Assembly (NCBI GenBank): GCA_043811915.1
Contig: JBDRMS010000005.1
Coordinates: 41,300-105,299 of the forward strand
Length of the DNA stretch: 64,000 bases
Source: a bacterium
Lineage (GTDB): Bacteria > Patescibacteriota > Andersenbacteria > UBA10190
Reading direction: 5' to 3'
In this document: in pieces, positions 10,704 to 61,788 of the stretch
Layout of the letters: every line of letters begins with the position of its first letter
How positions within the stretch are numbered: the stretch's first letter is position 1
Made by a program: the position numbers and the translations under genes
Notes under the pieces: model-generated
What the model was told of the DNA's origin: nothing
The model's database searches: none
What the model saw: only the letters and a program-made list of their open reading frames with translations

Positions 10704-10806
10704 ATACTCTCTATTGTACCAGCTCCCATAGACGGCGGCACGCCATACTTGCCAAAGCAGGAGTTTTGGATTATCCATAACATTCACGTTAAAGTTTCCT
10801 ATATAT

Positions 10807-21811: not shown

Positions 21812-21827
21812 TTTTTCGCTCCTTCAG

Positions 21828-21855
21828 TTGACAAAAGAACTGCCCTGTCTACAGT
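21828..21855 (+). promoter_or_regulatory. candidate sigma70-type promoter for the downstream GT9 gene
   Basis: TTGACA (21828-21833), a 16-nt spacer, then TACAGT (21850-21855). The first ATG is at 21863, so the transcript may be leaderless or have a very short leader. Confidence 0.3.
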
Positions 21856-21862
21856 AGAGCCT

Positions 21863-41868: not shown

Positions 41869-43317
41869 GGAACCCGCCACATTTCCCACAAAAGGTACTA
41901 GCTCTGTCGGCACATCCGCCGCATAAACTGGTGCCGCAAATGCAAAAAAAGCATCCCCGGCTCCCACTGCATCCACCACATGAGGAGCAAAAGCTGGCGT
42001 TTCCATAAAACCGTCCTGTCGCGACAACGCTAATGATCCGTCACCTCCTCGTGTGGTCACAATTAAATCACATCCCATTTCCTGCTGCACCTGTCTTGCC
42101 ACCTTTCTTAGGTCACTTTCTTTATCATGGGTGGCATAACGCAACTCCACTTCGTCCACACAGACAAAGTCTGCGCGTGGATATTTTGTTACCAGGTTAA
42201 AGCCGGCATTAGCACCATTGGTCTGCACATTTAGCGCCAGCTTCTTTGCCTGGCGACAAATCGTTCGGATTATTTTATCTGTTATAAAACCGTGGCCAAA
42301 ATCATTAACCACCACCACATCATAATCACCGACTGAATTTCGCAAATATTCGATTATGCCTCCTTCCACATCTTTATCGACTTGGCTATCCTGCATATAG
42401 TAAATCTCAAATAACTTCAGATTTCGGCTATCACTGACATAACGACGCTTAACAGTTGTGCCTGCTCCGCTACGATAAAAAAACTTCGGTTTAACTCCTC
42501 CGGCTAACTGTTTTATAATAAAGTGCCGCCAGGAATCTTTTCTTCCCAGCAAAGTAGCAAGCGCCACCTGCCGACACACGCTCGACACATGATTAGCTGT
42601 AGCCAGAGCTCCGCCGGCAAATGATTCATCCTTTAAATATCGATTGACGATTAGTGGCTCCTTGCCCGATTTACCCATCTGCGCACAGTAATCATACTGG
42701 TCAATAATCGCGTCCCCGACCACGAGCACCTTCAGCTTCTTCGCCGCATCCAGCGCTTCAACAATATCATTGTAGGAATACTTTTTTTTCAGTGACTTTA
42801 GGTATCGCCGCGTCTTTAAGGGATAAACATCAAGATGGTCATTAATTAATTGGGAAGAGCTAAAAACAATATCATTAGTAAAGACCAGTCGCCCGCCATT
42901 TGCCCTAACTGCTCTTTCTTCATCAATAATTTTTCCCGTCACATCATCTTTAGCCTTCCGGTAGTCCTGCCCCTTCACATAGACATTACTCTTCAGCTTT
43001 TTCAACGACTCCACCGCCGTCGGCGCCGACACAATAGACACATAATCAACCACTGCCAACGCCGCTATCGCTTCCGCCCGCAAATCTTCACTAAACAACG
43101 GCCTCCCCGGACCCTTCCTCACATATCTATCAGCCGTCAACGTCACCACTAAAACATCGCCCTCTTTTTTGGCCGCCTCAAAATGACGAATATGTCCCGG
43201 ATGAACCAGGTCAAAAACCCCGTGACACTGTACTATTATTTTACCTTGACTCTTTAACTTAGCGACAATCAACGCCAGATCATCAAGCTCTTTCACTTTC
43301 ATGTCCCCCGTTGCCAT
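41788..43317 (-). CDS. hldE: bifunctional heptose-7-phosphate kinase / heptose-1-phosphate nucleotidyltransferase (HldE/RfaE-like) with inverted domain order
   Basis: The N-terminal cytidylyltransferase-like domain has VQCHGVFDLVHPGHIRHFEAAKKEGDVLVVTLTADRYV (HxGH). The C-terminal PfkB kinase domain has VLVVGDAIIDQY ... DAVGAGDAF. E. coli HldE has the opposite order. Confidence 0.75.
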   Translation of the reverse strand: MATGDMKVKELDDLALIVAKLKSQGKIIVQCHGVFDLVHPGHIRHFEAAKKEGDVLVVTLTADRYVRKGPGRPLFSEDLRAEAIAALAVVDYVSIVSAPTAVESLKKLKSNVYVKGQDYRKAKDDVTGKIIDEERAVRANGGRLVFTNDIVFSSSQLINDHLDVYPLKTRRYLKSLKKKYSYNDIVEALDAAKKLKVLVVGDAIIDQYDYCAQMGKSGKEPLIVNRYLKDESFAGGALATANHVSSVCRQVALATLLGRKDSWRHFIIKQLAGGVKPKFFYRSGAGTTVKRRYVSDSRNLKLFEIYYMQDSQVDKDVEGGIIEYLRNSVGDYDVVVVNDFGHGFITDKIIRTICRQAKKLALNVQTNGANAGFNLVTKYPRADFVCVDEVELRYATHDKESDLRKVARQVQQEMGCDLIVTTRGGDGSLALSRQDGFMETPAFAPHVVDAVGAGDAFFAFAAPVYAADVPTELVPFVGNVAGSLATQIIGNRDVVQLADMLKFIARLLK

Positions 43318-43318
43318 A

Positions 43319-44650
43319 TCAACAAATTGTATGAGTAAACCTCTTTTTCCACCAGCTTATTACCCCACCCAAATACACAAAGGCAATGAAAAATGACATG
43401 GCAGGAGCAAATATGCCAAACCTGCCCACCAGCCAATAAATACTAATCAAGTAAACAGTACCTGCCACCAACCCATTTAAACCAATAAATCTTACGCCCT
43501 TTGCGCCCGTGCTGGCAATAAACCACCAGTAAGTCTGCCAGACAAAAAACAACATAGCGTACACGCTCATGCAAAGTATTAGGCGCCAGGAAAACATATA
43601 AGCGCCCCCTAACAACCTCAAACTAATTGCCCCGCCAATTATCGTCAGCAAAACTGCCGGTATAAAACCTACTCCAATCAGCCGTTCCAGTTTTTTTAAT
43701 ACGGCTAGCTTATCTTCATGCCGCGACACCATAGGAAAAAATACATTAATAAACACGTAGCTCAACTGCGCCGCCACCTGCACAGACACGTAATAGTAAG
43801 CCGCGTACACACCCAGGCTGGCCTGTCCCAACATCCTCTCAATCAGAAATTTATCTCCTCCCACTAGCAACAACCCGGCCACAGCGCCAACCATGCCAAA
43901 GCGTATGTAACGCCAAAGGTCCAGCGCCACCTCGCCCTGCCAATACTGCCAGCCTATCAATCTTCCCGCCCCGCCTGCCGTTATATACGACAAAATAATT
44001 ACCACCGCCCCTGCCATCGTCGCCACTACAAACAACGCATAGCCGCCGCCCGACAGCCAATACATTATCACAAATCCCAGTAATATAATAACCGCCTCAA
44101 ACGTCCTAGCCTCGGCCTGAAATCTAAATTTACCCTCCCCTCTAATTACACCATCAAAAAACATTCTAAACGCCAGTGCTAAAGCCAGAGCCGTCGCCGC
44201 TCTTAAAACGCCACTATCTATATCAAATATTGCTGACAGTGTTCCAGCTCCAGCAAAAACAAGCATCGATACCAGTACAGTGGCGCTCGCCATCACTAAA
44301 AAACCAGAAGATACCATGCGACGCTTGGTCGTTAAATGTTTTATATTTATAGCTACACTTCGCATGACAGCTACATCCATGCCTAACAACATCGGAATAA
44401 TCAACAGCTGCGACACGGCCAGCGCCAAGGCAAATAAACCAAATTGCTTCGGTCCAAGCAGCCTTCCCACCAGTAACAAAGTACCAAACAAAATTGCATT
44501 AGCCGACGTCAGCCCCACAAATGAAAATGACAGTTGTTTTAAAAACTGCCTCATGTAAATACTCATGTCATAACCAAACAGCCTTGCGTGACTGGCCATG
44601 ATAAACTTCTTTCCCCAGACCAACATCACTTCGAAAGCAAACTCAACCAC
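43319..44650 (-). CDS. Wzx-type polysaccharide flippase (MOP/PST family)
   Basis: About 12-14 TM helices and an N-terminal FVGLTSANAILFGTLLLVGRLLGPKQFGLFALALAV typical of O-antigen/teichoic-acid translocases. Confidence 0.7.
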   Translation of the reverse strand: MVEFAFEVMLVWGKKFIMASHARLFGYDMSIYMRQFLKQLSFSFVGLTSANAILFGTLLLVGRLLGPKQFGLFALALAVSQLLIIPMLLGMDVAVMRSVAINIKHLTTKRRMVSSGFLVMASATVLVSMLVFAGAGTLSAIFDIDSGVLRAATALALALAFRMFFDGVIRGEGKFRFQAEARTFEAVIILLGFVIMYWLSGGGYALFVVATMAGAVVIILSYITAGGAGRLIGWQYWQGEVALDLWRYIRFGMVGAVAGLLLVGGDKFLIERMLGQASLGVYAAYYYVSVQVAAQLSYVFINVFFPMVSRHEDKLAVLKKLERLIGVGFIPAVLLTIIGGAISLRLLGGAYMFSWRLILCMSVYAMLFFVWQTYWWFIASTGAKGVRFIGLNGLVAGTVYLISIYWLVGRFGIFAPAMSFFIAFVYLGGVISWWKKRFTHTIC

Positions 44651-45567
44651 CAGCGCCGCCAGCGCCGTAGTGCCTCACTCTGTGCCATTCTCATCACCAG
44701 CCCGTGACCCAGCCACGACAACAAGTATTGTTCTAAAACTATTAATTTATAACCACGCTGCCAGCGCCGCACATGTTGCTCTGGAAAATAATTCTTGAAC
44801 TCCCGTGATCTCATTAATTCTCCCGCCCTATTAATAATTTTCCACATCTCCATCGGCCGCCGTGAAGTACTGTGCGAAAGACTATCCGGCGATATTACCC
44901 AGGTCATAAAAGGCCTCGGCACATAGCACACCCCATATCGCAACCCGATTGCTCGCGCCGCAAATGAATCGCACCACGAACCAAGCTTCAGCCTGAAACC
45001 ACCAACCTCCATCAGCGCACTTTTTCGAAAAATTGTTGATCCGACAAATGACTGCCCCGCCACCTCTGACTCCAGGCACTCTTTTCGATATTGATCAGGA
45101 CCGGCATAAAGTGCCTTATTCCATTTATTTACTTTTATTGTGTATAATTTTTCTCCATCAGTACTTACGGCCTTTATCTCGCCGAAAATCATCCCGGCTT
45201 CCGGATACCGCTCCGCCCAGTCCATCGCTTCGGCAAAAAAATAAGAAGGGATATAATCATCAGCCGCACCAAAATATACATATTCTCCCTTAAGCCACGC
45301 CATCACTCCTCCCAGCACAACCTGCACCCCCCTATTCTTCCTGTAAACTATCAATTTAAGCCACGCATACTTTTTAGCATAGCCCCGCACTATCCTGACA
45401 CTGTCATCAGTTGACCCGTCATCCACTATAATCAATTCATCAGGCAACCTGCTCTGGCTGGCTACTGCTTCAATCGCCCGGCCTATACAATGTCCGTGAT
45501 TGTAATTAGAAATAAATACCGACAGTGTCAGCTTTTTAGAATTCAATAATAATTCTTCCCGCATCAC
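44626..45567 (-). CDS. GT2 glycosyltransferase
   Basis: LSVFISNYNHGHCIGRAIEAVASQ ... LIIVDDGSTDDS ... YFGAADDY. Confidence 0.7.
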   Translation of the reverse strand: MMREELLLNSKKLTLSVFISNYNHGHCIGRAIEAVASQSRLPDELIIVDDGSTDDSVRIVRGYAKKYAWLKLIVYRKNRGVQVVLGGVMAWLKGEYVYFGAADDYIPSYFFAEAMDWAERYPEAGMIFGEIKAVSTDGEKLYTIKVNKWNKALYAGPDQYRKECLESEVAGQSFVGSTIFRKSALMEVGGFRLKLGSWCDSFAARAIGLRYGVCYVPRPFMTWVISPDSLSHSTSRRPMEMWKIINRAGELMRSREFKNYFPEQHVRRWQRGYKLIVLEQYLLSWLGHGLVMRMAQSEALRRWRRWWLSLLSK

Positions 45568-46537
45568 CCCTGTCTAATTCTTTTAAAGCTGCATTAATTT
45601 TGTCTAACGAATATCTGTGAGTTATCAGCTTTTTCAGAGGCAATTTGCCAGACATATATTGTCTGGCATAGTAAGGGAAATCCTTATCCGGCACCGTCTC
45701 TCCACCCCAGGTGCCGATTATTCGTTTGCCGCATATTAAACTATACGGATCAATTTTTATTTTTGTCCCAAGCTTGGGATGCCCCGCTATTACCAGCGTG
45801 CCAGTGTTATTCAAAGCCTCAAATGCCTGCTCCATGACCTCTGAAAGACCCGTCGCTTCTACGGCGTAATCCAAGTCAGCTATTTTTCCCTGCCCTGCCT
45901 TTTTTACTTCTGTCGCCCCCAGTTTTTTTGCCCAGGCAAGCTTCTTCTTAGATATATCAACCGCTATAACATCTTTACACCCAATCTGTCTGGCCGCCAT
46001 TACTGCACTAGCTCCAATCCCTCCTACGCCAAATATAGCCAATCGAGATCCTTTTTTTGCCCGTAACGAATGTCGCACCATGCCGGCGCCTGTGGCCACC
46101 GCGCAACCAATTATGGCTGCTACATCAGCCGGCACTTTTCTACTAACTTTTGTCACCCTGTTTTCCGCCACCACGGCGTACTGCGAAAATACAGCTGCGC
46201 CGCCCGAATTTACTATTTTTCCTTTCCATTCATACAGACCTCCCGGCGCATCCATACCACTGCCTTTAATCCATGAGACTACCACGTAATCGCCGCGTTT
46301 TACTTTTTCTACCCCACCGCCTACTTTAACCACATTTGCCGAACCTTCATGGCCCAGCAAGTGGGGTAAATATGGATCCTTGCCCCGCCAGCCATTAATT
46401 TCACTCAATTGAGAGCGACACAACCCGGCCGCCTTCATTTTAACTAAAACCTGTCCCCGCCGCAGTTTTGGCACCACAACCTCATCCACAACCAATGACT
46501 GCTTAATCATCACTAAAATTGCTGCTCTGGTTTTCAC
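45536..46537 (-). CDS. zinc-dependent medium-chain dehydrogenase/reductase (sorbitol or threonine-DH-like)
   Basis: GLCRSQL ... GHEGSANVV ... GDYVVV, the NAD-binding GVGGIGASAVMAARQIG, and AVDISKKKL. Confidence 0.8.
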   Translation of the reverse strand: MKTRAAILVMIKQSLVVDEVVVPKLRRGQVLVKMKAAGLCRSQLSEINGWRGKDPYLPHLLGHEGSANVVKVGGGVEKVKRGDYVVVSWIKGSGMDAPGGLYEWKGKIVNSGGAAVFSQYAVVAENRVTKVSRKVPADVAAIIGCAVATGAGMVRHSLRAKKGSRLAIFGVGGIGASAVMAARQIGCKDVIAVDISKKKLAWAKKLGATEVKKAGQGKIADLDYAVEATGLSEVMEQAFEALNNTGTLVIAGHPKLGTKIKIDPYSLICGKRIIGTWGGETVPDKDFPYYARQYMSGKLPLKKLITHRYSLDKINAALKELDRGDAGRIIIEF

Positions 46538-47190
46538 GGAATAAACCAGTAGTAGTCTCCTGTGTAGCCAACCTCCTTAAATAGTTGCTCCCACTCTGCC
46601 ACAGACATATACGTCAGCGCTGTCAGATTCCACATATCCATTCTTTTTTTCTCCTCCGGCGTTCTGTAGGCATCCATTGTTACAAATGCGTCCTCCCTCG
46701 TCACCCGCATAATCTCTCGCAATGCTTGTTTGCACTCGTCGATGGCAAGGTTATGCACCGTGTTTATCGAGATAACCAGGTCGAACGAATTATCCTCGAA
46801 CGGCAGCTTCCTGGCGTTAGCCACCTGCACATGCCCCTTCATGTCCTCTATAGTGTTGTCTATGCCGTATTGCGATATATCTATTCCCTTAACCGTAATA
46901 CCAGGAATCAACTCAGCAAAATCGTGCATCATAAAACCTTTGCCACACCCCACATCCAGCAAACTGCTTTCTTTTGTTAACCCGTATTTCTTCTGAAAAG
47001 CCGGTACTACCGGCTGCCAGAATCGTGCCTGATAGCTAAACCCCCCGTACCCATGGCGCCTATCGCCATCAAAATAATCTTTGTCAAATCTTCGTCCAAC
47101 TCTCCGATCTTCTTCCGTTTTAGCCGCCGCCCGCTCATCCAAATTACGCTTGGTTTTTGGGTAATCCGCCATTAAATCTATCTCTGCCAT
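46534..47190 (-). CDS. class I SAM-dependent methyltransferase
   Basis: Motif I is LLDVGCGKGFMMHDF. It is coupled by 4 nt to the dehydrogenase gene. Confidence 0.75.
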   Translation of the reverse strand: MAEIDLMADYPKTKRNLDERAAAKTEEDRRVGRRFDKDYFDGDRRHGYGGFSYQARFWQPVVPAFQKKYGLTKESSLLDVGCGKGFMMHDFAELIPGITVKGIDISQYGIDNTIEDMKGHVQVANARKLPFEDNSFDLVISINTVHNLAIDECKQALREIMRVTREDAFVTMDAYRTPEEKKRMDMWNLTALTYMSVAEWEQLFKEVGYTGDYYWFIP

Positions 47191-47193
47191 AGC

Positions 47194-48999
47194 CTAATGT
47201 TGCACTTTCTCCGCAGAAACATCAAGAGAAACATCAAGCGGTTCCACAATCATGTTTTCTATTAATTCTCTCCGCGGCAGCAGCGGTTCAGAATCTTCCA
47301 GCGGCCGGCCGAATTTCACTTGCGGTAGCACCCGGTGAGATATATCAACCTTCACCACACAAAACGTCGGGCCGGGATTCTCCAAACAAGCACCTATCGC
47401 TTTTTGCAGCATATCATTCTTCTCTACGACCACCGTTTTAAAGCCGAACGCCCGGGCAATTTTTCCCCAATCTGGAAATGACAGTCCGCTGGCAACGGAT
47501 GACGCCTCATACTTTGAATTCAGCCATTGATCCTGTGTCTGTTGAATCATGCCATAGCCCTGATTGTCCAATACAAATATCTTAATCGGCGCTTTGTGCC
47601 GTATCACCGTGGCCAGCTCCTGCATATTCATCATTAGGCTGCCATCACCCGTCACACAAATGACAGGGGACTTGCTTCCCGCTAAACTAACACCCATCGC
47701 CGCCGGCAGCGCCCAGCCCATCGCCGTGTAGTTAAAGTCATGCCACAGCCGTTGATTCTTCTTAAACTCAAACCCCTGCATCATCCAAGCCACCGTACAT
47801 CCCGTATCGACAACCAGTTTTTCTCCTTCCCGGCACCGCTTTGATAATTCTTTAACAAAAACATAAGGATTAACTTTCTTCTCGTCGTAATATTCAGGCG
47901 CACATACCGGATATCGTTCTTTCCAATTGCTTATTCTGTTCCGCCAGGCCGCGTAATTTATACCGGCAGGTTTGGGCAGCATCTCGTTCAACGACATTAA
48001 AAATTTCTTTGCTTCAGCCTTTATCAGCAAGTCCGCCTTCATTCCATAATAGTCATATTTCCCTAATTCATTGTTATCCACGTCTACCACAATTTTTTTT
48101 GCCCCCCGTGCAAATGTATCCATCCCCCCCGTGGCTCGCGTGTCCAATCGACAACCAATAGATAATACCAAGTCAGCGTTTTGCACCGCAAAATTTCCGT
48201 ACCGCGTCCCGTGCGTGCCAAAAGTGCCAATTAAGTTTGGGTTGCTCGCCGGCAACAAGTCCGCCACCGCCCACGTCAACGCCACCGGTATTTTTATTTT
48301 TTCTATCAACTGCGCCGCCTGGTCTTCCGCCTGCGCCAGTCTCACTCCCCACCCCAAGATCATCACCGGCCGCTCCGCTTTTTCTATTAATAACACACTC
48401 TTTCGCAAATCCTGCACATCAACTACTGCCGGCACCTCCGCCTTAGGTTTATACAACTTTAACTTCTTGGGATCTATCATCTTACGCTGCAAATCATCCG
48501 GTATATCAATAAGCACCGGTCCCGGCCGATCCTGTTTGGCTATATATGCCGCCTTGTCCAACTCATACCCAATCATATATGGATCAGTAATTTTCACGGC
48601 ATACTTTGTCACCGGCCGAAAAATATCCACCGTATCCGTTTCCTGAAAGCCCATCTGTCTCACTCCTGTGTGTTCCCTAAACCGAAAAGTAGCCACCTGC
48701 CCGGTTAAAAACATAACTGGTACTGAATCGTAATAAGCGCCGGCCGCCCCTGTTAACATGTTCGTCGACCCGGGCCCACTAGTGCCAATGCTTACGCCCA
48801 GTCCCCCGCTGGCTCTGGCGTAAGCATCAGCCGCGAAAGCGCCGGCCTGCTCGTGGGCCGGACATACATATTCAATGCCTTTTGTTTTAGCAATACCATC
48901 AATCAGGTGCAGCGACGCGCCTCCGGTTATAGCAAAAACGTGCCCGACCTCCGCCTTTTTTAACCATTCTGCGACATATTCTGCCAATTTCACGACCAT
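47194..48999 (-). CDS. ThDP-dependent acetolactate-synthase-like enzyme (YerE-type candidate)
   Basis: N-terminal Pyr domain VGHVFAITGGASLHLIDG...CPAHEQAGAFAADAYAR...GTSGPGSTNMLTGAAGAY. C-terminal PP domain GDGSLMMN. Length 601 aa. Confidence 0.8.
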   Translation of the reverse strand: MVVKLAEYVAEWLKKAEVGHVFAITGGASLHLIDGIAKTKGIEYVCPAHEQAGAFAADAYARASGGLGVSIGTSGPGSTNMLTGAAGAYYDSVPVMFLTGQVATFRFREHTGVRQMGFQETDTVDIFRPVTKYAVKITDPYMIGYELDKAAYIAKQDRPGPVLIDIPDDLQRKMIDPKKLKLYKPKAEVPAVVDVQDLRKSVLLIEKAERPVMILGWGVRLAQAEDQAAQLIEKIKIPVALTWAVADLLPASNPNLIGTFGTHGTRYGNFAVQNADLVLSIGCRLDTRATGGMDTFARGAKKIVVDVDNNELGKYDYYGMKADLLIKAEAKKFLMSLNEMLPKPAGINYAAWRNRISNWKERYPVCAPEYYDEKKVNPYVFVKELSKRCREGEKLVVDTGCTVAWMMQGFEFKKNQRLWHDFNYTAMGWALPAAMGVSLAGSKSPVICVTGDGSLMMNMQELATVIRHKAPIKIFVLDNQGYGMIQQTQDQWLNSKYEASSVASGLSFPDWGKIARAFGFKTVVVEKNDMLQKAIGACLENPGPTFCVVKVDISHRVLPQVKFGRPLEDSEPLLPRRELIENMIVEPLDVSLDVSAEKVQH

Positions 49000-49853
49000 G
49001 GCATAGCCGACTTAAGAGATATAAACAATGTTCCGTCGTGATATGAATACGGCATTTCAGATACCGCGCCAACCCGCCCCCAGTTAATCTTTTGCGAGTA
49101 CATATTAACTCCCAATTCCCTTAAATGCTCGAATATAGTTCTGGCTTTCTCCTCGCTGCCAATTTCAACCAGCATATCCGTGTTTTGCCACTGCTCCAAA
49201 GTTGTCGCCAACAAGGCTTTATCCTCGTGTCCTTCAATATCCAGTTTTACCAGGTCGGCCCAATCCATAATTTCGCTTATCGGTGCCGTCCTGACATCAA
49301 TATAATTTAATTCTCCGTAAGGATCCGGCTTGCCCCCTTTTATATGACTTCCGGTGGTATTACCTAACACCCGGATAAATTCAGCCTTCCCTGCTTTGTC
49401 GGACACGGCCACCGGCCTGATCTCAACATTGGCACAGTTGTTAAGCTTTAAACGCCTTTCAATTTCAGTCACGTGTTCCAGGTCAGGCTCATAAGCCCTT
49501 ACCTCATAATCGCATCGGCTCAACACAAGCGAATGCAGCCCAATGTTAGCCCCTGCGTCCACTACTTTTCGATATCTTTTTCTGTTATGCCAGTAAAAAC
49601 TGAAGATGATTATTTCCTCAATATCAAACAAGTCAACGGAATCAATTGCTCCCATTTTGTGATAAGGAAAAATAAGTTTGCCAAACGGAGCAAAATCTCT
49701 TTTTATCCCCGTTACAGCAGAAAATTTTCCCGCTGCCTCTTTTCTGGCCAGAGCCCGCCAACTATTATGCAGCTCCGTTCCAGGTGCATGCTGCGAGCTC
49801 AAATAGGGCAGTGTCGTTATTAGTTCGGTTAATGTCGCCGGCTTCTGCCTCAC
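48990..49853 (-). CDS. FkbM-family methyltransferase
   Basis: VVDAGANIGLHSLVLS ... AYEP ... the FkbM core. Confidence 0.7.
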   Translation of the reverse strand: MRQKPATLTELITTLPYLSSQHAPGTELHNSWRALARKEAAGKFSAVTGIKRDFAPFGKLIFPYHKMGAIDSVDLFDIEEIIIFSFYWHNRKRYRKVVDAGANIGLHSLVLSRCDYEVRAYEPDLEHVTEIERRLKLNNCANVEIRPVAVSDKAGKAEFIRVLGNTTGSHIKGGKPDPYGELNYIDVRTAPISEIMDWADLVKLDIEGHEDKALLATTLEQWQNTDMLVEIGSEEKARTIFEHLRELGVNMYSQKINWGRVGAVSEMPYSYHDGTLFISLKSAMPWS

Positions 49854-49870
49854 ATCCTTATCTTATATTA

Positions 49871-50647
49871 TTAATTGCCATACCTACGCAGCTTATACAT
49901 ATTTCTGTCCTCTGCCAAAACTCTGTTAAGCCTGTCACTGCCCCAGTCATCACAAGCTGCGCTTATATTTCTTCCTCCCACTTCTTCTCTTGGCGACCGT
50001 GCCACCCAGTCGATGCAATCTAATACCTTATTTATGGGTGTCATCTCGCCTCCAGATAACATTTCCTTTGTCCGCTGCAGGTTGTCCCCCGCCCGCTCTC
50101 CCGCCCGCAAAGTTTCCTTATGAATTTTTGTTTTCACCCAGCCCGGCCCGATCACCGTAAAGCAGACATCGTTCATTTCCGCATCCAGCAGCTCCGCCAT
50201 TTTTATCAAGGCGATCTTCGACACCGTGTAAGCCGAGTAATTAATCGGCGCATTATTGACACCGCCCCCGGCAAACCATAACACCGTTGGACCGGTCGCC
50301 GTGGTCTTGGCTCTCACCGGCAGCAAGCCATGCACCAAGCGCATCTGTCTGACAAAGTTTATTAATACAGACCGCTCCCACTCATTTATATCGTTATCTG
50401 AAAATTTACCGATCGGCTCCAGGCTGCCGGGGCACATAACCAGTATCTCCCAACCTTTCCCTGTCTTCTGTAATTTCTCTGCCGCCTTGTCCACGCTAAC
50501 CGCGTCAGACAAATCACATCTGACATAGTCCGATTTTCCCAAAGACGTGCCCAGCACTTCAACCCCTTTTTTCATCCAGCGTTTCGCCAGCGCAGACCCT
50601 ATATCACTATCAATGCCGGCGATTACAGCCTTACGCAGCGTGAACAT
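49871..50647 (-). CDS. short-chain dehydrogenase/reductase (SDR)
   Basis: AVIAGIDSDIGSALAKR (T/G-G-x-x-x-GIG-like), YTVSKIALIKM (Y-x-x-x-K). Confidence 0.65.
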   Translation of the reverse strand: MFTLRKAVIAGIDSDIGSALAKRWMKKGVEVLGTSLGKSDYVRCDLSDAVSVDKAAEKLQKTGKGWEILVMCPGSLEPIGKFSDNDINEWERSVLINFVRQMRLVHGLLPVRAKTTATGPTVLWFAGGGVNNAPINYSAYTVSKIALIKMAELLDAEMNDVCFTVIGPGWVKTKIHKETLRAGERAGDNLQRTKEMLSGGEMTPINKVLDCIDWVARSPREEVGGRNISAACDDWGSDRLNRVLAEDRNMYKLRRYGN

Positions 50648-51626
50648 ATTCCAGCGACTGTTTCTTTATCTCCACCCAGTTTTCTTCTACCCAATCAATT
50701 GCTTCCGTAAGCCCCTGTGTCAGTAAAATCTCCGGCTGCCAGTTAAATTCACCCCTGGCCTTGCTCGAATCCAGCATATAGGCGTCGTCGTGTCCCATCC
50801 GCGCCCCCGCCTCTTCGGTCACCTTGCTAAAATCATAGCCCGTTATATCACAAATCTGCTTTACCAAATCTCTGATTCTAATAGTATCGTCCGGGGACAC
50901 ATGATAAACCTCGCCAGGTAGTCCCTTAAACATGCCCTCAACGTAAGCCCTGGCTACATCCCGCACGTGAATAAAAGATCGCACTGCTGTTCCACCTCCG
51001 TGTAATTGCAAGGTTTTACCTAGCTTTAAGTAAATAGCGGTTCGAGGAACAATTTTAAAAAGCTGCTGCCCCGCCCCGTAAACATTGCTGGCCCGCATAT
51101 AAACTACGGGGAAATGATAATTTTTATAGAAAGTGTTCAGCAGCAAATCAAAAGCCGCTTTAGACGCCGCGTACGGTGTAGATGGATTCAGCGGCGCCGT
51201 CTCATCAATCTTGCCCGTTACTGACCCATAAACCTCCGGCGTTGAAATTTGCGTGAATTTCTTCAGGCTCGGCAATTGCCGCAAAAAATCCGCCAACTCC
51301 GTCAGCGCCGTAACATTAGTCTGCATCCACTGCACCGGATTATCCCAACTCTGCGCCACTTCGCTCAAGGCTGCCAGGTTCATCACATAATCGGGTTGTT
51401 CTGATGCTAACACTACTTTCAAGGCGTCCATGTCCTTATTTATATCCGCCTTGAAAAAACGAAAGCTGGATAGATCGCGCTTAACATACGGCAGAAACAT
51501 CTCTGGCTTTTCCTCTCGATCAATTCCTAATACTTGATGCTTCCCCGCCGCCAGCAGTTCATCCACCACATAAGCCCCTGTAAACGAATTACACCCGATA
51601 ATAGCCACCTTGTGCATACAAACCAT
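50631..51626 (-). CDS. NAD-dependent sugar-nucleotide 4,6-dehydratase/epimerase (RmlB-like)
   Basis: VAIIGCNSFTGAYVVDEL, YAASKAAFDLLLNTF (Y-x-x-x-K), ASNVYGAGQ. Confidence 0.8.
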   Translation of the reverse strand: MVCMHKVAIIGCNSFTGAYVVDELLAAGKHQVLGIDREEKPEMFLPYVKRDLSSFRFFKADINKDMDALKVVLASEQPDYVMNLAALSEVAQSWDNPVQWMQTNVTALTELADFLRQLPSLKKFTQISTPEVYGSVTGKIDETAPLNPSTPYAASKAAFDLLLNTFYKNYHFPVVYMRASNVYGAGQQLFKIVPRTAIYLKLGKTLQLHGGGTAVRSFIHVRDVARAYVEGMFKGLPGEVYHVSPDDTIRIRDLVKQICDITGYDFSKVTEEAGARMGHDDAYMLDSSKARGEFNWQPEILLTQGLTEAIDWVEENWVEIKKQSLEYVHAA

Positions 51627-51646
51627 CTTATGATATCCTTTTCAGC

Positions 51647-52540
51647 TTGTACACTTCACACCAAATAATGGAGAATAAAAACATGAAGAACGTTCTGGAA
51701 ACACTTGAAGAAGCATGTCGAGCTGCAGGTAAAATTTCTCTGCCTCGGCAAGGTAATGTTGAAATCGCCGTTGTCAAGAGTGCGGGTGACTATGCCACCA
51801 CTTCCGATATCGACGCCGGCACCACTATGACAGCGATAATCAATGAGCAACTGCCCGACATTCCCATCGTCCCCGAGGAAAACAAGACCGACCAAGTAGA
51901 TGAGCAGTTCTGGGCCGAACGCCAAGCCATGCTCGACAACGGCACCTTCATCCTAATGGACGACCTTGACGCCACCGTCCGCTACCGCCACGGCGGCGAA
52001 GACTGGGGACACATACTTGGCCTAGTACAAAACAACGTCCTCACCCACTGTGCCATGTTCATGCCCGCCCGCGACGTCATGGTGTTAGCCGAACTCGACA
52101 AAGGTTGCTTCGTCAACGGCACGCAGGTACGTCTCAACCCAGACCTCAAGGTCCAGGACTCCCTACTGTGCATGACAGTCCACAAAGACGTTGACCTCGC
52201 CTTCCACCGCGACGTGGTTACCCCCATCGTCTACAGTGTTGGACCCGGCGGCTATGTCTGTTTTAACTCTAACATCGGCGGCGTGGTCAGATTGGTACAG
52301 GGCGAGCTGGGCGGTTTCATCGGCTGTGGCCACAACTGGGACTTTGTCGGTGCTCTGGCTGTTCAGGAGGCCAGCGGAATTGCCCTCTCACCCACTGGTC
52401 AGGAGCTGAATTGGAACAAAATCCCCATGGTCATGGTCGCCGCTGCCAACCGCCAAATTGCCAATGCTATGCTCGCCCACACTAGAGCCTACCTGCACTA
52501 CCAAGAACACTTCTGGGGCAACCCCAAATTTCAAAGCTGA
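51647..52540 (+). CDS. inositol-monophosphatase-family sugar-phosphate phosphatase (CysQ/SuhB-like)
   Basis: FILMDDLDATVRYRHG resembles the DPIDGT metal motif. WDFVGALAVQEASG resembles the WD-x-AAG motif. Confidence 0.6.
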   Translation: MYTSHQIMENKNMKNVLETLEEACRAAGKISLPRQGNVEIAVVKSAGDYATTSDIDAGTTMTAIINEQLPDIPIVPEENKTDQVDEQFWAERQAMLDNGTFILMDDLDATVRYRHGGEDWGHILGLVQNNVLTHCAMFMPARDVMVLAELDKGCFVNGTQVRLNPDLKVQDSLLCMTVHKDVDLAFHRDVVTPIVYSVGPGGYVCFNSNIGGVVRLVQGELGGFIGCGHNWDFVGALAVQEASGIALSPTGQELNWNKIPMVMVAAANRQIANAMLAHTRAYLHYQEHFWGNPKFQS

Positions 52541-52564
52541 ATTCTCTTGAGCTTTTACCTCACC

Positions 52565-52595
52565 CCGGCCGCCCATCCCGCGACCGGTTTTTTTT
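52565..52595 (+). terminator. intrinsic terminator after the phosphatase gene
   Basis: GC-rich stem CCGGCCGC/GCGACCGG (one mismatch) with a 7-nt loop, followed by TTTTTTTT. Confidence 0.6.
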
Positions 52596-52680
52596 GACAA
52601 ATACTCCAAAATACTCAACACTAAACAGCCGTTCGTTGACAAACAAATAACCTCGTTCCTTTAGAAAAGGAGTGCGTTCA

Positions 52681-53904
52681 ATGGCATTCAATGCCTGGTA
52701 CCAACCCAACTGTCACGCCGAGCGTTTTGTCTTCGTTGGCTGCGTGCACAAGACCGATGCCAACATTCTTTCCCGCCTGGCCCAGGTCACCGCCAACCCG
52801 CCAGACTATCTGATTTTCACCGGCGACGTCACTGGTTCCGAAGAGCTGGAAGAGTTCAAACGTCTATTCTACAATCACGTCTACAACAGAGCCCGCCGCG
52901 AACTCGGCATCGGCACCTCCGCCGAGCAGAACATCACCTACGCCGAACTACTAGGCTATGTCGGCCACGACCCACCCAGCCCCGACCACACACTAGCCGA
53001 CGGCTACCGCGATTTGATGCACTACCAGTTGCGTCTTGAAGGCTTAAGCTCAACTGAAGCAGACAAACGTGTATCAACCCTAGAAAGCAACGAAATTGCC
53101 TACGGCATTCACCACATCGCCCGCGATTTCGAGTACTACGGCCCCTGGGTCAAAACTCTACCAGAAGCAGTCCGCCGCGGTGTGGTAGCCACCCTCAAGC
53201 AGGACGCCGAGAAGCTGGTCGCCGCCATCAAACCTATGCAGGACGCCGGCACCAAAATAATCATGGTCGGCGGCAATTGGGACGACGCGGGGAACACAGC
53301 CGACAACATGATCGGCGAGGGTATCGAAGTATTCGACACTATCCCATTCTTTCGCGAACACGGCATCGAGTTCTTTGACCAGATTGGATACCAAGTCACC
53401 AAACGAACCATCCTGGTGATCCTGCCGTACTGGGAATTACAAAACTTCACAGAAAAAAGCAGCACTAGGCTCGAGCATGCTATAGCTACAGCCGACAGGG
53501 AAAAACCCGGCAAAACTATTATCACTGTCGCTCACGGAGCACCTACTTGGCAAGTCCACAACCCCAACGCCGTTGACGAACCCACCGGAGACCGAAAGAC
53601 CATCATTGACACACTCGGCAGGCTCCTGGCCAGAATCGAGCCGGACGAAGTTATTCACGGACATGAGCACAACCCACTGAAGAGCAGCGTTGAAAACCCT
53701 CTTCCGCTCAACACCCACTACATATTGCAGACCGACGATGGCAAAACTCATCTTGTTGAAAATCGAAAACACTTCGGTCGGCCCGGCCAAATCATCGGCT
53801 CATACATTCCGTTCCAGCAATTTGGCATGTTGAACATTCCCCTGAAAACTGACTCCCGCCCCCGGCTGTTCAGCGGCGACCGAGAACCCGTCCACGTCTT
53901 TTGA
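52681..53904 (+). CDS. calcineurin-like metallophosphoesterase
   Basis: FVGCVHK (D/G-x-H), FTGDVTGS (GD-x-x), MVGGNWDD (GN[HW]D), and HGHEH. A strong Shine-Dalgarno (AAAGGAG) sits 7 nt upstream of the ATG at 52681. Confidence 0.65.
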   Translation: MAFNAWYQPNCHAERFVFVGCVHKTDANILSRLAQVTANPPDYLIFTGDVTGSEELEEFKRLFYNHVYNRARRELGIGTSAEQNITYAELLGYVGHDPPSPDHTLADGYRDLMHYQLRLEGLSSTEADKRVSTLESNEIAYGIHHIARDFEYYGPWVKTLPEAVRRGVVATLKQDAEKLVAAIKPMQDAGTKIIMVGGNWDDAGNTADNMIGEGIEVFDTIPFFREHGIEFFDQIGYQVTKRTILVILPYWELQNFTEKSSTRLEHAIATADREKPGKTIITVAHGAPTWQVHNPNAVDEPTGDRKTIIDTLGRLLARIEPDEVIHGHEHNPLKSSVENPLPLNTHYILQTDDGKTHLVENRKHFGRPGQIIGSYIPFQQFGMLNIPLKTDSRPRLFSGDREPVHVF

Positions 53905-53910
53905 ACCCTC

Positions 53911-53945
53911 AAACTCTGGCAGTCTTAACTCCCAGAGTTTTTTTA
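53911..53945. terminator. bidirectional terminator-like hairpin between convergent genes
   Basis: AAACTCTGG and CCAGAGTTT form a 9-bp stem followed by TTTTTT. The hairpin overlaps the stop codon of the E1-beta gene. Confidence 0.5.
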
Positions 53946-54992
53946 AAACGGCCCGGTGAACGACTTATCCGGCACGTCGTGCGGCACCGCATTTTTCGCC
54001 TCCGCATTCTGCCAGCGTCTCCCTGACACCGCCTCCACTATCGTCCGATATGTCGGGTAATATTCCTTCGTCAGCGCCGGCGAAGACGGCGTCGGCATAT
54101 CCAGCAAGGCAATGCGCTGCGGCACTCTCTTTAACGATGCAAACATTTTCTCCGTTACCCGCGCTATAATTTCTCCGGCCGCCCCTCCCGTCTGCCAGCT
54201 CGAGTCGACTACTACGAGCCTGCCCGTCTTTTTCACCGAGGAAAAAATCATCTCGTCGTCCAGCGGCTTAATCGTCCTTAAATCAATTAAATCAACACCA
54301 ATTCCCTGATCTTTGAGTATTCGGGCTGCTCGCAATGCTTCAACTGTCATGTAAGAGCTGGCCACTATAGTCACATCACCGCCCTCATTAACAACTTTCG
54401 CCTTCCCCAGCGGCACTTGATATCTCCCCTCCGGCACCCTGCCCGAAAGCCCATGAATCCACCGGTGCTCCAGAAAAATCACCGGGTTATTGTCTTCAAT
54501 ACTGGCTAGCAGCAACCCTTTGGCATCATACGCCGTAGCCGGCATTACCACTTTCAAGCCCGGTATATGGGCAAACAACGCCTGTAAATTCTGTGAATGC
54601 TGCGCCCCTTGACCCCAACCACGTCCAATAATCATCCTGATAACCAATGGCACCGAAGACACCCCGCCAAACATAAAGTGCCACTTGGCCGCATTATTAA
54701 TAATCTGCTCCAGCGCATACAAAGAAAAATCTACCCGCTGATGCGTCATGATCGGCCGCAAACCTTTTAGCGCCGCCCCAATACACATGCCGGTAACAGC
54801 ATTTTCCGATACCGGCATGTCCATTACTCGTTTCTCCCCGTACTTTTCTTTCAAGCCCAGAGTGGTACCAAATATGCCCTTAGGGTCCGGCGTTCCTTCG
54901 CCAATAATAAACACTCTGTCATCAGCTGCCATGGCCTGGTCCATCGCCTCCCTAATCGCCTCCGCACATGTTATTTCCCGCTCACGGAGCAT
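53943..54992 (-). CDS. ThDP-dependent dehydrogenase E1 beta subunit (transketolase-like C-terminal half; AcoB/PdhB-like)
   Basis: N-terminal REAIREAMDQAM..DDRVFIIGE and the transketolase Pyr-domain motifs MDMPVSENAVTGMCIGAALKGLRPI. Length 349 aa. Confidence 0.85.
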   Translation of the reverse strand: MLREREITCAEAIREAMDQAMAADDRVFIIGEGTPDPKGIFGTTLGLKEKYGEKRVMDMPVSENAVTGMCIGAALKGLRPIMTHQRVDFSLYALEQIINNAAKWHFMFGGVSSVPLVIRMIIGRGWGQGAQHSQNLQALFAHIPGLKVVMPATAYDAKGLLLASIEDNNPVIFLEHRWIHGLSGRVPEGRYQVPLGKAKVVNEGGDVTIVASSYMTVEALRAARILKDQGIGVDLIDLRTIKPLDDEMIFSSVKKTGRLVVVDSSWQTGGAAGEIIARVTEKMFASLKRVPQRIALLDMPTPSSPALTKEYYPTYRTIVEAVSGRRWQNAEAKNAVPHDVPDKSFTGPF

Positions 54993-56007
54993 ATACGTCT
55001 TCTTCTAAAAGAGAGTCTTCCTCTGGAAACGGACTTTCTTTGGCAAACTCGACAGCCTTGTCAATCTCTTCATTGATTATTTTTTCCATATTAGCCAGCC
55101 CGAGACCACCCGTGCCCTTAAGCTTATTTAGCGGGTCTTTCTTCTTCCACGCCAAAAACTCCTCTTCTGTCCGATACCCTAAGTCATTGTCATAATTTGG
55201 TCCGCAGTGTTCACGCCAGCGGTAAGTTGCCAATTCCATAAACACGGGCCCTTTACCTCCTATAACATGCTGGCGTGCTTCCCGCGCCATGCCATACACT
55301 GCCACGGCATCATTTCCATCCCCGGCAAATACCCGCAAGCCATGCGCCGAAGCTATCCCCGTCAGCTCCCTCTTTGGCTGCCGCTCTTCAAGAGGAGTGT
55401 AAACCGAGTACAGATTGTTTTCGCACACATAAATAATTGGCAGTTTATGCAACACGGAAAAATTCATGCACTCATGCCACACTCCTTCTTCTGTTGCTCC
55501 CTCGCCCATAAAGACAACGGTGATGTATTGTTTGTCCTCTAGTTTTGCCGCCCAAGCCACACCCGTGGCTACAGGCACAATATTTGTCACAATTGGTGTT
55601 GAACCCAAAAAATTCACTGCTTGATCAATTAAATGCATGGACCCTCCTCTTCCCTGGCAGCAACCCGTGGCCTTGCCATAAATTTCCGCCAGCATTCTTT
55701 TTAAATCCCCGCCCTTAGCCAAATAATGTCCGTGCGCCCGATGCCCGCTCATCACCACATCCTCCGGTTCCAAAGCCTCACACACTCCCGCGGCACACGC
55801 CTCCTGCCCAATACACAAATGCACCGGGCATCTCATCTCCTGTTCGGAGTAAAGTTCTGCAATTCGTTCTTCAACTAAACGAATCCGGAGAACACTGTAA
55901 AGAAGTCGACGGGTGGCGCCGGGCGGGGGCCCCCCGCCGCGCGCCCGCAGCCGATGCGAGGACGCGCGGTGGGAGTGAAGACCGGCGACAGGACCCGTTG
56001 ACTTCAT
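54982..56007 (-). CDS. ThDP-dependent dehydrogenase E1 alpha subunit (AcoA/PdhA-like) with an anomalous GC-rich N-terminal extension
   Basis: IRLVEERIAELYSEQEMRCPVHLCIGQEA and the ThDP-binding GDGATEEGVWHECMNFS. The first roughly 34 codons (MKSTGPVAGLHSHRASSHRLRARGGGPPPGATRR) are encoded by an approximately 80%-GC patch. Confidence 0.75.
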   Translation of the reverse strand: MKSTGPVAGLHSHRASSHRLRARGGGPPPGATRRLLYSVLRIRLVEERIAELYSEQEMRCPVHLCIGQEACAAGVCEALEPEDVVMSGHRAHGHYLAKGGDLKRMLAEIYGKATGCCQGRGGSMHLIDQAVNFLGSTPIVTNIVPVATGVAWAAKLEDKQYITVVFMGEGATEEGVWHECMNFSVLHKLPIIYVCENNLYSVYTPLEERQPKRELTGIASAHGLRVFAGDGNDAVAVYGMAREARQHVIGGKGPVFMELATYRWREHCGPNYDNDLGYRTEEEFLAWKKKDPLNKLKGTGGLGLANMEKIINEEIDKAVEFAKESPFPEEDSLLEEDVYAP

Positions 56008-57020
56008 ACCAATGCCTCCGCAGCCAACGACTGCATCATTTTGATATTAAAATACTTAGCATCATCCAGAGAATTTGGTATTTTACCCGCCTTGAATGCC
56101 ATCACCAAATCCGCCACCGCGTCTTCGATATTTCTCTTCGGCTCAAAGCCCAGCACCCGTTTTATTTTTTCTGATGAAATATGATACGAACGTACATCAT
56201 CCGACTTTGTAGTTTTAATTTCCATTTTTCCCAGCTCCGGCATCAGCTTCATCACCACTCGCCGCACTATTTCCGCTAATTCGGCCACCGTATAATTCTG
56301 ATAGCCGGCGTTGAACGCCTGCCCGGCAATTTTTTCTTTCGGTGCAGTCAACAGCTGCACATACAAATCCGTAATATCCTCGATATGAATATTCGGCCGC
56401 ATTTGTTTGCCGCCAAAAACCGTAATTATCTTATTATTCACGGCATGATTCGTTAAAATATTCACAGTTAGATCAAGTCGCATCCGGGGCGAATATCCGC
56501 ACACCGTAGCCGGACGAATCGATACCACCGTGAAATCATCTGTCTGCTCCTCCCACATAATATCTTCACACATGCTTTTAAAGCGATTGTAATCCGTAAT
56601 CGGCACATGAGGATGCTCTTCAGTCACGTTCAGTTTGTCGCTTATTCCGTAAACGCTGGAGCTGGCCGCAAAAATAAAACGTTTCACCCCGTGCTCTTTA
56701 CATTGCCGGATCAAAGGACGAAAAGCGTCATAATTTATGGACCGGCCAAGCTTCGGGTCCAACTCCACACTAGGATCATTGGAAATACAGGCCAAGTGAA
56801 TCACGGCTTGCACGCCCGGCAACAAACTGTCCACTAACTTACCGTCCCTAATATCTCCCTTTACCTCTCGTAAATTCGGATGCCCTTCCAACACATCATC
56901 CCCATATATATACCAATCTAATACTGTCACCTTATATCCTGCCCGCAGCAATTTTGGTACTAGTACAGCCCCCTTATACCCCGCCCCGCCCGTTACCAAC
57001 ACATTCGACATTTCTTTCAT
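56004..57020 (-). CDS. NAD-dependent epimerase/dehydratase (extended SDR)
   Basis: N-terminal VLVTGGAGYKGAVLVPKL and the layout typical of CDP/UDP-sugar epimerases. Confidence 0.8.
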   Translation of the reverse strand: MKEMSNVLVTGGAGYKGAVLVPKLLRAGYKVTVLDWYIYGDDVLEGHPNLREVKGDIRDGKLVDSLLPGVQAVIHLACISNDPSVELDPKLGRSINYDAFRPLIRQCKEHGVKRFIFAASSSVYGISDKLNVTEEHPHVPITDYNRFKSMCEDIMWEEQTDDFTVVSIRPATVCGYSPRMRLDLTVNILTNHAVNNKIITVFGGKQMRPNIHIEDITDLYVQLLTAPKEKIAGQAFNAGYQNYTVAELAEIVRRVVMKLMPELGKMEIKTTKSDDVRSYHISSEKIKRVLGFEPKRNIEDAVADLVMAFKAGKIPNSLDDAKYFNIKMMQSLAAEALV

Positions 57021-60816: not shown

Positions 60817-61788
60817 ATGAAGATACTAATTCCTTATTGTTCAGGCAACGCTGGCGGCCCCACGGTATTTGTTACCGCTCTAACCCAGCACCTGCAAAAT
60901 CAGGGATACAAAGTCATCAGTCACTTCTCACCTTCATTTGACGTCTTACTCGTCATCGCCGAATGTCCGCTTTTGCCGGTCCTCTGCGCCAAACTTCTTC
61001 GCAAACGCATAGTACAAAGGTTGGATGGCGTTTACCACGCCGCCTTACCCGGTGCAACCAAATATCTTTATCCACTTAAAAACCTGCGCATGCAAATAAT
61101 TCACAATTTCCTGGCCGACCACGTTATCTATCAAAGCCGGTTTTCCAAATACTCATGTCAAACCATGCTAGGCAAACGCACTAAAAACACGTCGATAATC
61201 TACAACGGTGTAGCGGCCGGGAAAACCCTTGGCTTTGACAGAAAAAAGCCAAGGGTTGAGGAGGCCGCCGCGAATCTAGTAACCTATGCCTCTTTCCGCC
61301 GCCCCGACCAAATCGAGCCAATTCTAGAATCAGTCAAATGTCTCACTACCCCCTATCATCTCCATATTTACGGCCCCCACACTAAAAACCTGGTCAACAT
61401 CTTCAACTCACTCAAAAATAATCCCCATATCACTTATTATGGAGCCCAAAATCACAGCAAGCTATTATCTCTCATACCACAGCATGATATTTTCCTGTTC
61501 TCCGACCAGTCCGCCTGCCCCAACGCTGTCCTGGAAGCTTTAGCTGCCGGCCTACCCGTGGTAGCTTTCAACCGCGGCAGTATACCCGAACTTATCCAGC
61601 CCGGCGCAAGCGGTGAAATAATCAACTATCCATTTACCTCACAAAACTATACCCAATTTGCCCAAGCTATTCAGAAAACATTCAGCAATCTATCTGACTA
61701 TCAGACCGCGGCCCGGCAACGCGCCCGGATTAACTATGACGTAACCAACACATGTTTGAAGTATGAAAAGATATTACGACAAAAATAA
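60817..61788 (+). CDS. GT4-like (GT-B) glycosyltransferase
   Basis: C-terminus FLFSDQSACPNAVLEALAAGLPVVAFNRGSIPELI. Confidence 0.6.
   Translation: MKILIPYCSGNAGGPTVFVTALTQHLQNQGYKVISHFSPSFDVLLVIAECPLLPVLCAKLLRKRIVQRLDGVYHAALPGATKYLYPLKNLRMQIIHNFLADHVIYQSRFSKYSCQTMLGKRTKNTSIIYNGVAAGKTLGFDRKKPRVEEAAANLVTYASFRRPDQIEPILESVKCLTTPYHLHIYGPHTKNLVNIFNSLKNNPHITYYGAQNHSKLLSLIPQHDIFLFSDQSACPNAVLEALAAGLPVVAFNRGSIPELIQPGASGEIINYPFTSQNYTQFAQAIQKTFSNLSDYQTAARQRARINYDVTNTCLKYEKILRQK

Follow-up and report, generated by a model that had tools for sequence, protein, structure and literature searches.

A conserved gene cassette with two kinds of predicted thiamine diphosphate-dependent carboligase and a possible role in building an unusual surface sugar

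Genes at the locus

The DNA analysed here, referred to as the window, is a stretch of 64,000 nucleotides from a bacterium of the Andersenbacteria (UBA10190; Patescibacteriota), positions 41,300 to 105,299 of contig JBDRMS010000005.1 in assembly GCA_043811915.1. By domain scans, a glycan-biosynthesis island occupies it from ~10.8 kb to 64 kb, and about twenty of the genes there are for glycosyltransferases. Within this island lie genes for two kinds of thiamine diphosphate (ThDP)-dependent enzyme. One encodes a protein of 601 aa that resembles acetolactate synthase (ALS; 47194-48999, minus strand) and matches TPP_enzyme_N, _M and _C (E 1e-32 to 1e-42). The other kind is a split E1 of the heterotetramer-type 2-oxoacid dehydrogenases (53943-56007), made up of an alpha subunit of 341 aa (54982-56007, minus strand; E1_dh, PF00676, 8e-62) and a beta subunit of 349 aa (53943-54992, minus strand; Transket_pyr and Transketolase_C). 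These are not genes of amino-acid or energy metabolism but parts of a probable sugar-building cassette. An initial annotation, made from the window alone, had named the three ThDP genes and several neighbours; open reading frame (ORF) listing with Pfam and NCBIfam scans recovered every one of these ORFs in its place and on the minus strand, and the Pfam domains bear out the assignments of the ThDP proteins.

The neighbours are, in the direction of transcription on the minus strand, an extended short-chain dehydrogenase/reductase (SDR) of the Epimerase family upstream of E1alpha (56004-57020), which is a candidate nucleoside diphosphate (NDP)-heptose C4-dehydrogenase; an RmlB-like extended SDR, non-canonical, whose best PDB matches are dTDP-glucose 4,6-dehydratases (50631-51626); a classical SDR (adh_short in Pfam; 49871-50647), a candidate for reducing the branch ketone in the role of YerF; and an FkbM-family methyltransferase by Pfam and NCBIfam (48990-49853). 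Downstream of the ALS-like gene follow a class I S-adenosylmethionine (SAM) methyltransferase of 218 aa assigned by Pfam (46534-47190), a Zn-dependent alcohol dehydrogenase (Zn-ADH) of the medium-chain dehydrogenase/reductase (MDR) type by Pfam and structure matches (45536-46537), a Pfam-assigned GT2 glycosyltransferase that is a candidate transferase for the product (44626-45567), a Wzx-type flippase (43319-44650; Polysacc_synt and Polysacc_synt_3) and a protein resembling HldE with its nucleotidyltransferase and PfkB kinase domains in reversed order (41788-43317; Pfam and NCBIfam). The GT2 and Wzx genes share the operon. Adjacent minus-strand genes abut or overlap slightly, within a few bases, which indicates operons; a single larger gap measures 17 nt (49853 to 49871). 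Two plus-strand genes divide the block into two transcription units (51647-53904), namely an IMPase-family phosphatase (51647-52540; PF00459) and a metallophosphoesterase with a Pfam match and no NCBIfam match (52672-53904).

An ALS-like protein of the YerE type

Judged by its sequence, the ALS-like protein is YerE-like and not a biosynthetic acetohydroxyacid synthase (AHAS). In a neighbour-joining tree (573 columns, 100 bootstraps, rooted on PoxB; YpYerE and ErwE were not among the sequences), the window protein and 17 relatives form one clade (95%) that is joined by JanthE (87%) and then by PpYerE (99%). E. coli IlvB and IlvI, the Arabidopsis AHAS and Gcl lie outside. The protein had been suggested to be a homologue of YerE, and the tree does place it with the YerE-type enzymes and away from IlvB (99% bootstrap). 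For this tree the sequences of JanthE, PpYerE, IlvB and the Arabidopsis AHAS were taken from printed alignments, and those of E. coli IlvI, Gcl and PoxB from the K-12 genome.

Scores and identities agree with the tree. Against the IlvB equivalog model TIGR00118 the protein reaches 425.1 bits (cut-off 538.35), and it fails every other ALS equivalog, far below the respective cut-offs. Its closest PDB matches are JanthE (8rph, 336 bits), plant AHAS (~305), PpYerE (5ahk, 282) and E. coli IlvB (271); entry 5AHK was deposited as 'acetolactate synthase II, large subunit' and is taken here to be PpYerE. Identity to IlvB and IlvI is 31-32%, and a tblastn search of plasmids recovered genuine ilvB genes alone, at most 34% identical to the ALS-like protein. 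The solved YerE-like members are 32-34% identical to it, and it belongs to a tight clade of its own with 46-73% identity internally.

The catalytic glutamate (HEQAG) and the ThDP motif (GDG...NN) are both present. Between GQV and FQE there is an insertion of 4-6 residues, which reads GQVATFRFREHTGVRQMGFQET in the query and GQVNTHELKGKRDIRQQGFQE in PpYerE, is similar in JanthE and is a gap in IlvB and AtAHAS. The tryptophan that sets acceptor specificity in AHAS (A. thaliana W574) is replaced by threonine (MIQQTQDQW), as it is in JanthE, and this threonine is kept in all common motif variants among orthologues. The basic residue at the position of AHAS Arg377 is retained, whereas it is absent from JanthE. 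The 8rph sequence has the CDG motif described as the hallmark of JanthE (PMC12247030).

With the YerE-like carboligases YpYerE, PpYerE (5AHK), ErwE and JanthE (8RPH) the ALS-like protein has in common the three-domain fold of the decarboxylase superfamily, a location in a surface-glycan cluster, an adjacent reductase and the lack of a regulatory subunit (PMC9306805, PMC12247030). In the window the cluster is of the nucleotide-sugar/surface-glycan kind and the putative side-chain reductase is the classical SDR, a candidate counterpart of YerF. Absence of ilvN and ilvC from the neighbourhood had been named as a point to check; at E <= 1e-3, tblastn with E. coli IlvH, IlvM, IlvC and IlvD gave no match in the 64-kb window, nor any in 86 related loci. 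The window protein and its relatives differ from the known YerE-like enzymes in that the dedicated 218-aa methyltransferase practically always, and the E1 pair usually, accompanies them, and in their context: an HldE/GmhA-like, heptose-type activation module stands here in place of the CDP-3,6-dideoxyhexose pathway. Carboligation of ketones or keto-sugars is the predicted activity.

The E1alpha/E1beta pair

E1alpha scores 289.6 bits against the pyruvate dehydrogenase (PDH) E1alpha equivalog of NCBIfam (cut-off 393.85), and E1beta narrowly passes one PDH E1beta model at the subfamily level (330 vs 321 bits). The nearest solved structures are human PDH E1alpha for the former and PDH E1beta for the latter. 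An ordinary dehydrogenase complex would have been signalled by an E2/E3 partner nearby. In the tblastn search just described, AceF and Lpd had no match in the window or the 86 loci, and none of the window ORFs scanned has a lipoyl, 2-oxoacid_dh or Pyr_redox domain.

The ThDP motif of E1alpha reads GEG...NN and its family signature YRWREHCG is nearly constant among orthologues. The Mg-binding position of the ThDP motif varies in them (GDG 29, GDA 11, GEG 10, GEA 6), the window protein being of the GEG type. The lipoyl-acetylating histidine looks kept within YRWREHCG when judged by eye against the YHGHS motif of human PDH E1alpha; its apparent retention is therefore uninformative on a role outside PDH.

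Gene context and precedent make the pair a candidate heterotetrameric carboligase that works without E2 and E3. The precedent is that of the sugar-branching alphaKADH2 pairs (AviB1/AviB2, the aldgamycin and paulomycin enzymes, KbDH-alpha/beta), which likewise comprise separate E1alpha and E1beta subunits without E2/E3. The AviB1/B2-type pairs and the window pair, likened here by published description, are both found among NDP-sugar tailoring genes, and the former transfer an acetyl group from pyruvate onto C3 or C4 keto-sugars (PMC12247030, PMC4753412). Known sugar-branching pairs come from actinomycete antibiotic clusters (PMC12247030), whereas this one occurs in surface-glycan loci of many phyla and together with a YerE-like enzyme.

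Conservation of the cassette

When one genome of each GTDB species was scanned with two peptide patterns spanning the YerE-type insertion, at least 565 stretches that encode a relative of the ALS-like protein were found. The best 80 (45-61% identity) were verified individually; they come from Nitrospirota, Saccharibacteria, Omnitrophota, Planctomycetota, Chloroflexota, Acidobacteriota and Verrucomicrobiota, from Alpha-, Beta-, Gamma- and Delta-proteobacteria, from cyanobacteria including Prochlorococcus, from Pelagibacteraceae and from Woese- and Pacearchaeota. A protein search recovered many relatives at 56-73% identity in metagenomes of very different phyla. A cassette of roughly ten genes is present in dozens of verified bacterial and archaeal species, and probably in hundreds in all.

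Orthologues of the window proteins were counted by tblastn in the 44 non-redundant loci whose flanks extend for 8 kb or more on either side of the ALS-like gene. The 218-aa methyltransferase is the most constant companion (43/44), followed by the classical SDR, whose gene in almost every case lies immediately upstream of that for the ALS-like protein, and by E1beta (40/44 each). E1alpha is found in 38/44, as are both E1 subunits together, and wherever a cassette locus has the pair the two genes adjoin. The reversed HldE-like gene occurs in 36 of the loci, and 31 have either FkbM or a B12-radical-SAM enzyme; FkbM alone accounts for 27/44, and the radical-SAM gene is present in 6 loci, some of them lacking FkbM. 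Less constant are the extended SDR of the 56004 type, usually just upstream of E1alpha (28/44), the Zn-ADH (27/44), the RmlB-like SDR (24/44) and a GmhA-like SIS protein (21/44).

Nearly all cassette genes are co-directional with the ALS-like gene. They recur as two blocks: block A has the order SIS (where present), reversed HldE, SDR, E1alpha, E1beta, RmlB-like SDR, and block B the order SDR, FkbM or radical-SAM enzyme, ALS, methyltransferase, Zn-ADH, the last being typically the final gene. The window has the gene order of, for example, loci L008 and L032, save that its HldE-like gene has come to stand last and that it contains two inserted foreign genes. Neighbourhoods in Nomurabacteria, Omnitrophota and Chlamydiae contain largely the same gene set, and the same order is seen in these three groups and in Labrys. 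By tblastn, Wzx, the IMPase, the metallophosphoesterase and AsnB are not conserved in the related loci, and GT2 has weak orthologues only (24-41%) in a minority of them; these five appear to be local additions in the window.

Some loci (L057, L079, L082) have the ALS-like gene with its SDR and/or methyltransferase and lack the E1 pair, which suggests that the ALS block can act alone. Gene fusions link the carboligase with methylation and with the class of SDR that normally modifies sugar nucleotides. In two independent metagenome proteins, P0013 (844 aa) and P0081 (825 aa), the ALS-like protein continues at its C-terminus into the 218-aa methyltransferase, with 56-59% identity over the whole methyltransferase, and in another metagenome protein, P0181 (919 aa), it is joined to an extended SDR of the RmlD type.

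In its alphaproteobacterial form, seen in Labrys neptuniae (L092) and in L093, the cassette has two further genes between those for the reversed HldE and the methyltransferase: one for a GFO/IDH/MocA oxidoreductase and one for a nucleotide-sugar 6-dehydrogenase. Conservation of the reversed HldE is very high (72-95% identity) among many Alphaproteobacteria, with Labrys, Methylobacterium and Ferrovibrio among them.

Proposed sugar activation and keto formation

The HldE-like protein has its nucleotidyltransferase at the N-terminus (residues 6-158, HPGH motif) and its PfkB kinase at the C-terminus (residues 191-500); true HldE has the kinase first and the adenylyltransferase second. Its NCBIfam scores lie under the cut-offs (153 vs 521, 126 vs 345 and 100 vs 181.5 bits, the last two for the rfaE domains). 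The reversed-domain protein may work like HldE, the likely substrate being suggested by resemblance. SIS proteins of related loci best match GmhA, at 93-97 bits (cut-off 209). The IMPase-family phosphatase (51647-52540) may substitute for GmhB as the sugar-bisphosphate phosphatase.

The extended SDR at 56004-57020 has its best PDB match in 6vo6/6vo8 (1.3e-39, 139.8 bits), of which 6vo6 is presumably Campylobacter jejuni Cj1427. Cj1427 is a GDP-heptose C4-dehydrogenase; in the C. jejuni GDP-heptose pathway it oxidises C4 of the NDP-heptose and so opens the sugar to further chemistry (PMC10680097), a logic to which we liken that of the window SDR. C. jejuni makes its GDP-alpha-heptose by HddA and HddC and continues with epimerases and reductases; that pathway has no ThDP enzymes.

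Among the neighbours named in the initial annotation, the SDRs, the FkbM methyltransferase and the Zn-ADH hold, but the 'RmlB-like dehydratase' does not stand as a canonical RmlB (203.6 bits; TIGR01181 cut-off 365.1). It reads S-T-P-E-V-Y-G, with proline for the catalytic aspartate of RmlB (T-D-E), and nearly all orthologues share this proline (S/T-P-E-V-Y-G); about half of these have YxxxR (PYAVSR) in place of YxxxK, that is, arginine for the catalytic lysine of SDRs.

Taken together, the scaffold looks heptose-based rather than of the classical 6-deoxyhexose kind. That the substrate is a heptose is our best guess, not a result, and we hold it at slightly better than even odds.

Two GT9 genes resembling heptosyltransferases of the ADP-heptose type lie elsewhere in the window, at 21737-22894 and 11895-12914 (both plus strand); the first scores 127 bits against heptosyltransferase II (cut-off 134.6). 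As dedicated transferases for the product they were set aside, as neither has a counterpart in any of the 86 related loci.

Discussion

We propose, with a probability of about 60%, that the two carboligases belong to one conserved, horizontally mobile cassette that would build an unusual sugar, extended by new carbon-carbon bonds, for a surface glycan. The proposal is drawn from sequence comparison. The initial annotation had read the ThDP genes as a route to a C-branched or acyl-branched sugar, and the grouping with YerE-like enzymes together with the missing ilv and E2/E3 partners supports that reading.

In the route that we envisage, a GmhA-like isomerase encoded elsewhere in the genome, the reversed HldE-like enzyme and a phosphatase would yield an NDP-activated sugar, probably a heptose. 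The two extended SDRs (56004-57020 and 50631-51626) would introduce keto groups on the ring, by oxidation or dehydration. Each ThDP enzyme would then decarboxylate a 2-oxo acid, most simply pyruvate, and add the acyl-anion equivalent to a keto group, so that the carboligations would leave acyl branches on tertiary alcohols. The side-chain ketones so formed would be reduced by the classical SDR and the Zn-ADH; methylation of the product would fall to the 218-aa methyltransferase and the FkbM enzyme, or in some lineages to a B12-radical-SAM enzyme, and the adjacent GT2 and Wzx would incorporate and export it. The order of the steps and the donor acids are what we infer from this gene set. That carboligases of both types add acyl branches to keto-sugars is published (PMC9306805, PMC12247030, PMC4753412), and we extend this enzymology to the cassette by analogy. 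Direct action of both ThDP enzymes on the sugar is a tentative part of the route, held at somewhat less than even odds.

Several observations weigh against this route. The GmhA-like gene is absent from the 64-kb window. The heptose-pathway matches (rfaE domains and GmhA) all lie below curated cut-offs, so the sugar may be something other than a heptose. The reaction of the RmlB-like SDR is uncertain, as the canonical aspartate is missing from it and the canonical lysine from half of its orthologues. A natural sugar to which ThDP enzymes have made two independent additions is not known to us.

As the main alternative, the two carboligases might divide the labour differently. One ThDP enzyme alone would touch the sugar while the other would make or trim its donor, for instance an extended hydroxy-keto acid or an acyloin, and the product would have just one branch of greater length, like that of erwiniose or caryophyllose. 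There is precedent for this arrangement in ErwE and MMAR_2332, which use pre-assembled C4-C8 keto-acid donors from accessory enzymes of the same cluster (PMC9306805), and in acetoin-type E1alpha/beta enzymes, which split acyloins to activated acetaldehyde (PMC12247030); the two recurring blocks could then be 'donor' and 'acceptor' modules. However, no aldolase or obvious donor-building enzyme is conserved in the cassette loci examined, and some loci that lack the E1 pair have the ALS block nonetheless; we consider this unlikely. Less probable again, indeed improbable, is that no pyranose is branched at all and that ThDP chemistry would make a small branched polyol or ketose phosphate, by the logic of DXS and the methylerythritol phosphate (MEP) pathway, which would then be activated for phosphodiester attachment. 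The enzyme set of the MEP pathway, which combines ThDP chemistry with a reductase, a cytidylyltransferase and a kinase, is a textbook parallel to the cassette. The nucleotidyltransferase domain belongs to the glycerol-3-phosphate cytidylyltransferase family, and Glyphos_transf-type genes lie near some cassettes and in the window (15771-16958). Such a product is at odds with the two SDRs of the sugar-nucleotide type that are frequent in the cassette, with the fusion of one ALS-like protein to an RmlD-type SDR, and with the kinase, nucleotidyltransferase and SIS genes, all of which best match heptose-pathway enzymes.

A housekeeping acetolactate synthase and a pyruvate or acetoin dehydrogenase E1 could also have come to lie in a glycan island by chance. 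The best NCBIfam names, 'acetolactate synthase large subunit' and 'PDH E1', and the E1beta score above its PDH subfamily cut-off (330 vs 321 bits) speak for this, but we give it next to no weight. The ALS-like protein is under all IlvB equivalog cut-offs and groups with YerE-like enzymes; no IlvN/M/C/D, E2 or E3 is nearby in 87 sequences (the window and the 86 loci); and the ALS-like gene is locked into the sugar cassette across phyla, with plasmid ilvB no more than 34% identical. Housekeeping IlvB and PDH roles were rejected on these model cut-offs, missing partners, plasmid comparison and tree. A trio of the acetoin/butanediol type (AlsS, Bdh and AcoAB) is unlikely too: catabolic ALS structures score 145-153 bits only, the Zn-ADH is nearer to class III alcohol dehydrogenases than to those of the Tdh/Bdh type, and E2/E3 of the AcoC and AcoL type are absent.

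The boldest form of the proposal, which we regard as rather unlikely, is that two successive ThDP-dependent carbon-carbon bond formations on one NDP-heptose give an undescribed sugar of C11 or larger. It would be doubly branched or chain-extended, reduced and methylated, and displayed on bacterial and archaeal surfaces, including those of the candidate phyla radiation (CPR), DPANN, Prochlorococcus and SAR11; CBU_0678 and the O-antigen E1 genes of Coxiella would belong to the same chemistry.

The O-antigen region of Coxiella burnetii does appear to hold related parts, a lead and not a finding, drawn from published descriptions. CBU_0678 is described as a reversed-domain homologue of HldE, essential for phase I lipopolysaccharide (LPS) and with no assigned function (PMC5843353, PMC13252051); as described (PMC5843353), its architecture is matched by that of the window HldE-like protein, the comparison being by description only. 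CBU_0686 and CBU_0692, together with CBU_0693, are horizontally acquired 'pyruvate dehydrogenase' E1 genes, with tags inside the O-antigen interval CBU_0676-CBU_0706, and have been read in one paper as fatty-acid metabolism (PMC5423948, PMC5554327). The nearest relatives are reported from Alphaproteobacteria, Delta/Epsilonproteobacteria and Planctomycetes, and the cassette occurs in these groups as well. The Coxiella papers cited here mention no ALS-like gene for this organism. For CBU_0678 and the E1 genes the cassette offers a specific hypothesis; were it true, the accepted GDP-mannose route to the sugars of this virulence-determining O-antigen would be incomplete.

ThDP-dependent sugar branching is itself known, so far from a handful of cases, and the field review places YerE-like enzymes in LPS and E1alpha/beta enzymes in secondary metabolites, separately (PMC12247030). 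What appears to be new here is a conserved cassette predicted to branch sugars with both enzymes, its heptose-type activation genes and its very broad distribution. No protein of the cassette reaches the cut-off of a function-specific NCBIfam model. Text searches that paired heptose or HldE with YerE or ThDP turned up no paper on such a combination and no description of the cassette, nor did we find one of its sugar product; such clusters might be listed by Krug et al. 2024, reportedly an in silico survey. The cassette points to a widespread surface sugar of undescribed structure and offers new candidate ketone-accepting carboligases for biocatalysis. The pathway is open to direct test in its cultured carriers, which are found in Labrys (L. 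neptuniae), Pseudocolwellia (P. agarivorans), Pseudodesulfovibrio (P. karagichevae), Polynucleobacter and Prochlorococcus.

Wider context of the window

GC content rises from ~0.46-0.49 to 0.52-0.54 over 52-56 kb, which spans the inserted phosphoesterase and the E1 genes. GC skew is strongly negative (-0.15 to -0.33) in every 2-kb bin of the window, irrespective of gene orientation. Between the two halves of the glycan island lies an ORF resembling an IS200/Y1-type transposase (38161-38817, minus strand), a position that fits a mosaic, horizontally assembled region.

The edge of the island at ~10.8 kb is marked by left-flank ORFs for an HsdM type I restriction-modification methylase, a RadC-like protein, the large subunit of exonuclease VII and MurJ (respectively 7438-8985, 9999-10838 and 3794-4915, all minus strand, and 1982-3538, plus strand). 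Three ORFs have no Pfam match: 627-1985 (plus strand, 452 aa), 10807-11898 (plus strand, 363 aa) and 27424-29478 (minus strand, 684 aa), the last embedded among GT4 genes. Towards the right edge, two further class I methyltransferases (61763-63240) precede a carbamoyltransferase C-terminal fragment ORF and an SxtJ-like ORF (63170-63954, minus strand), and these edge ORFs may represent further glycan tailoring that runs off the window.

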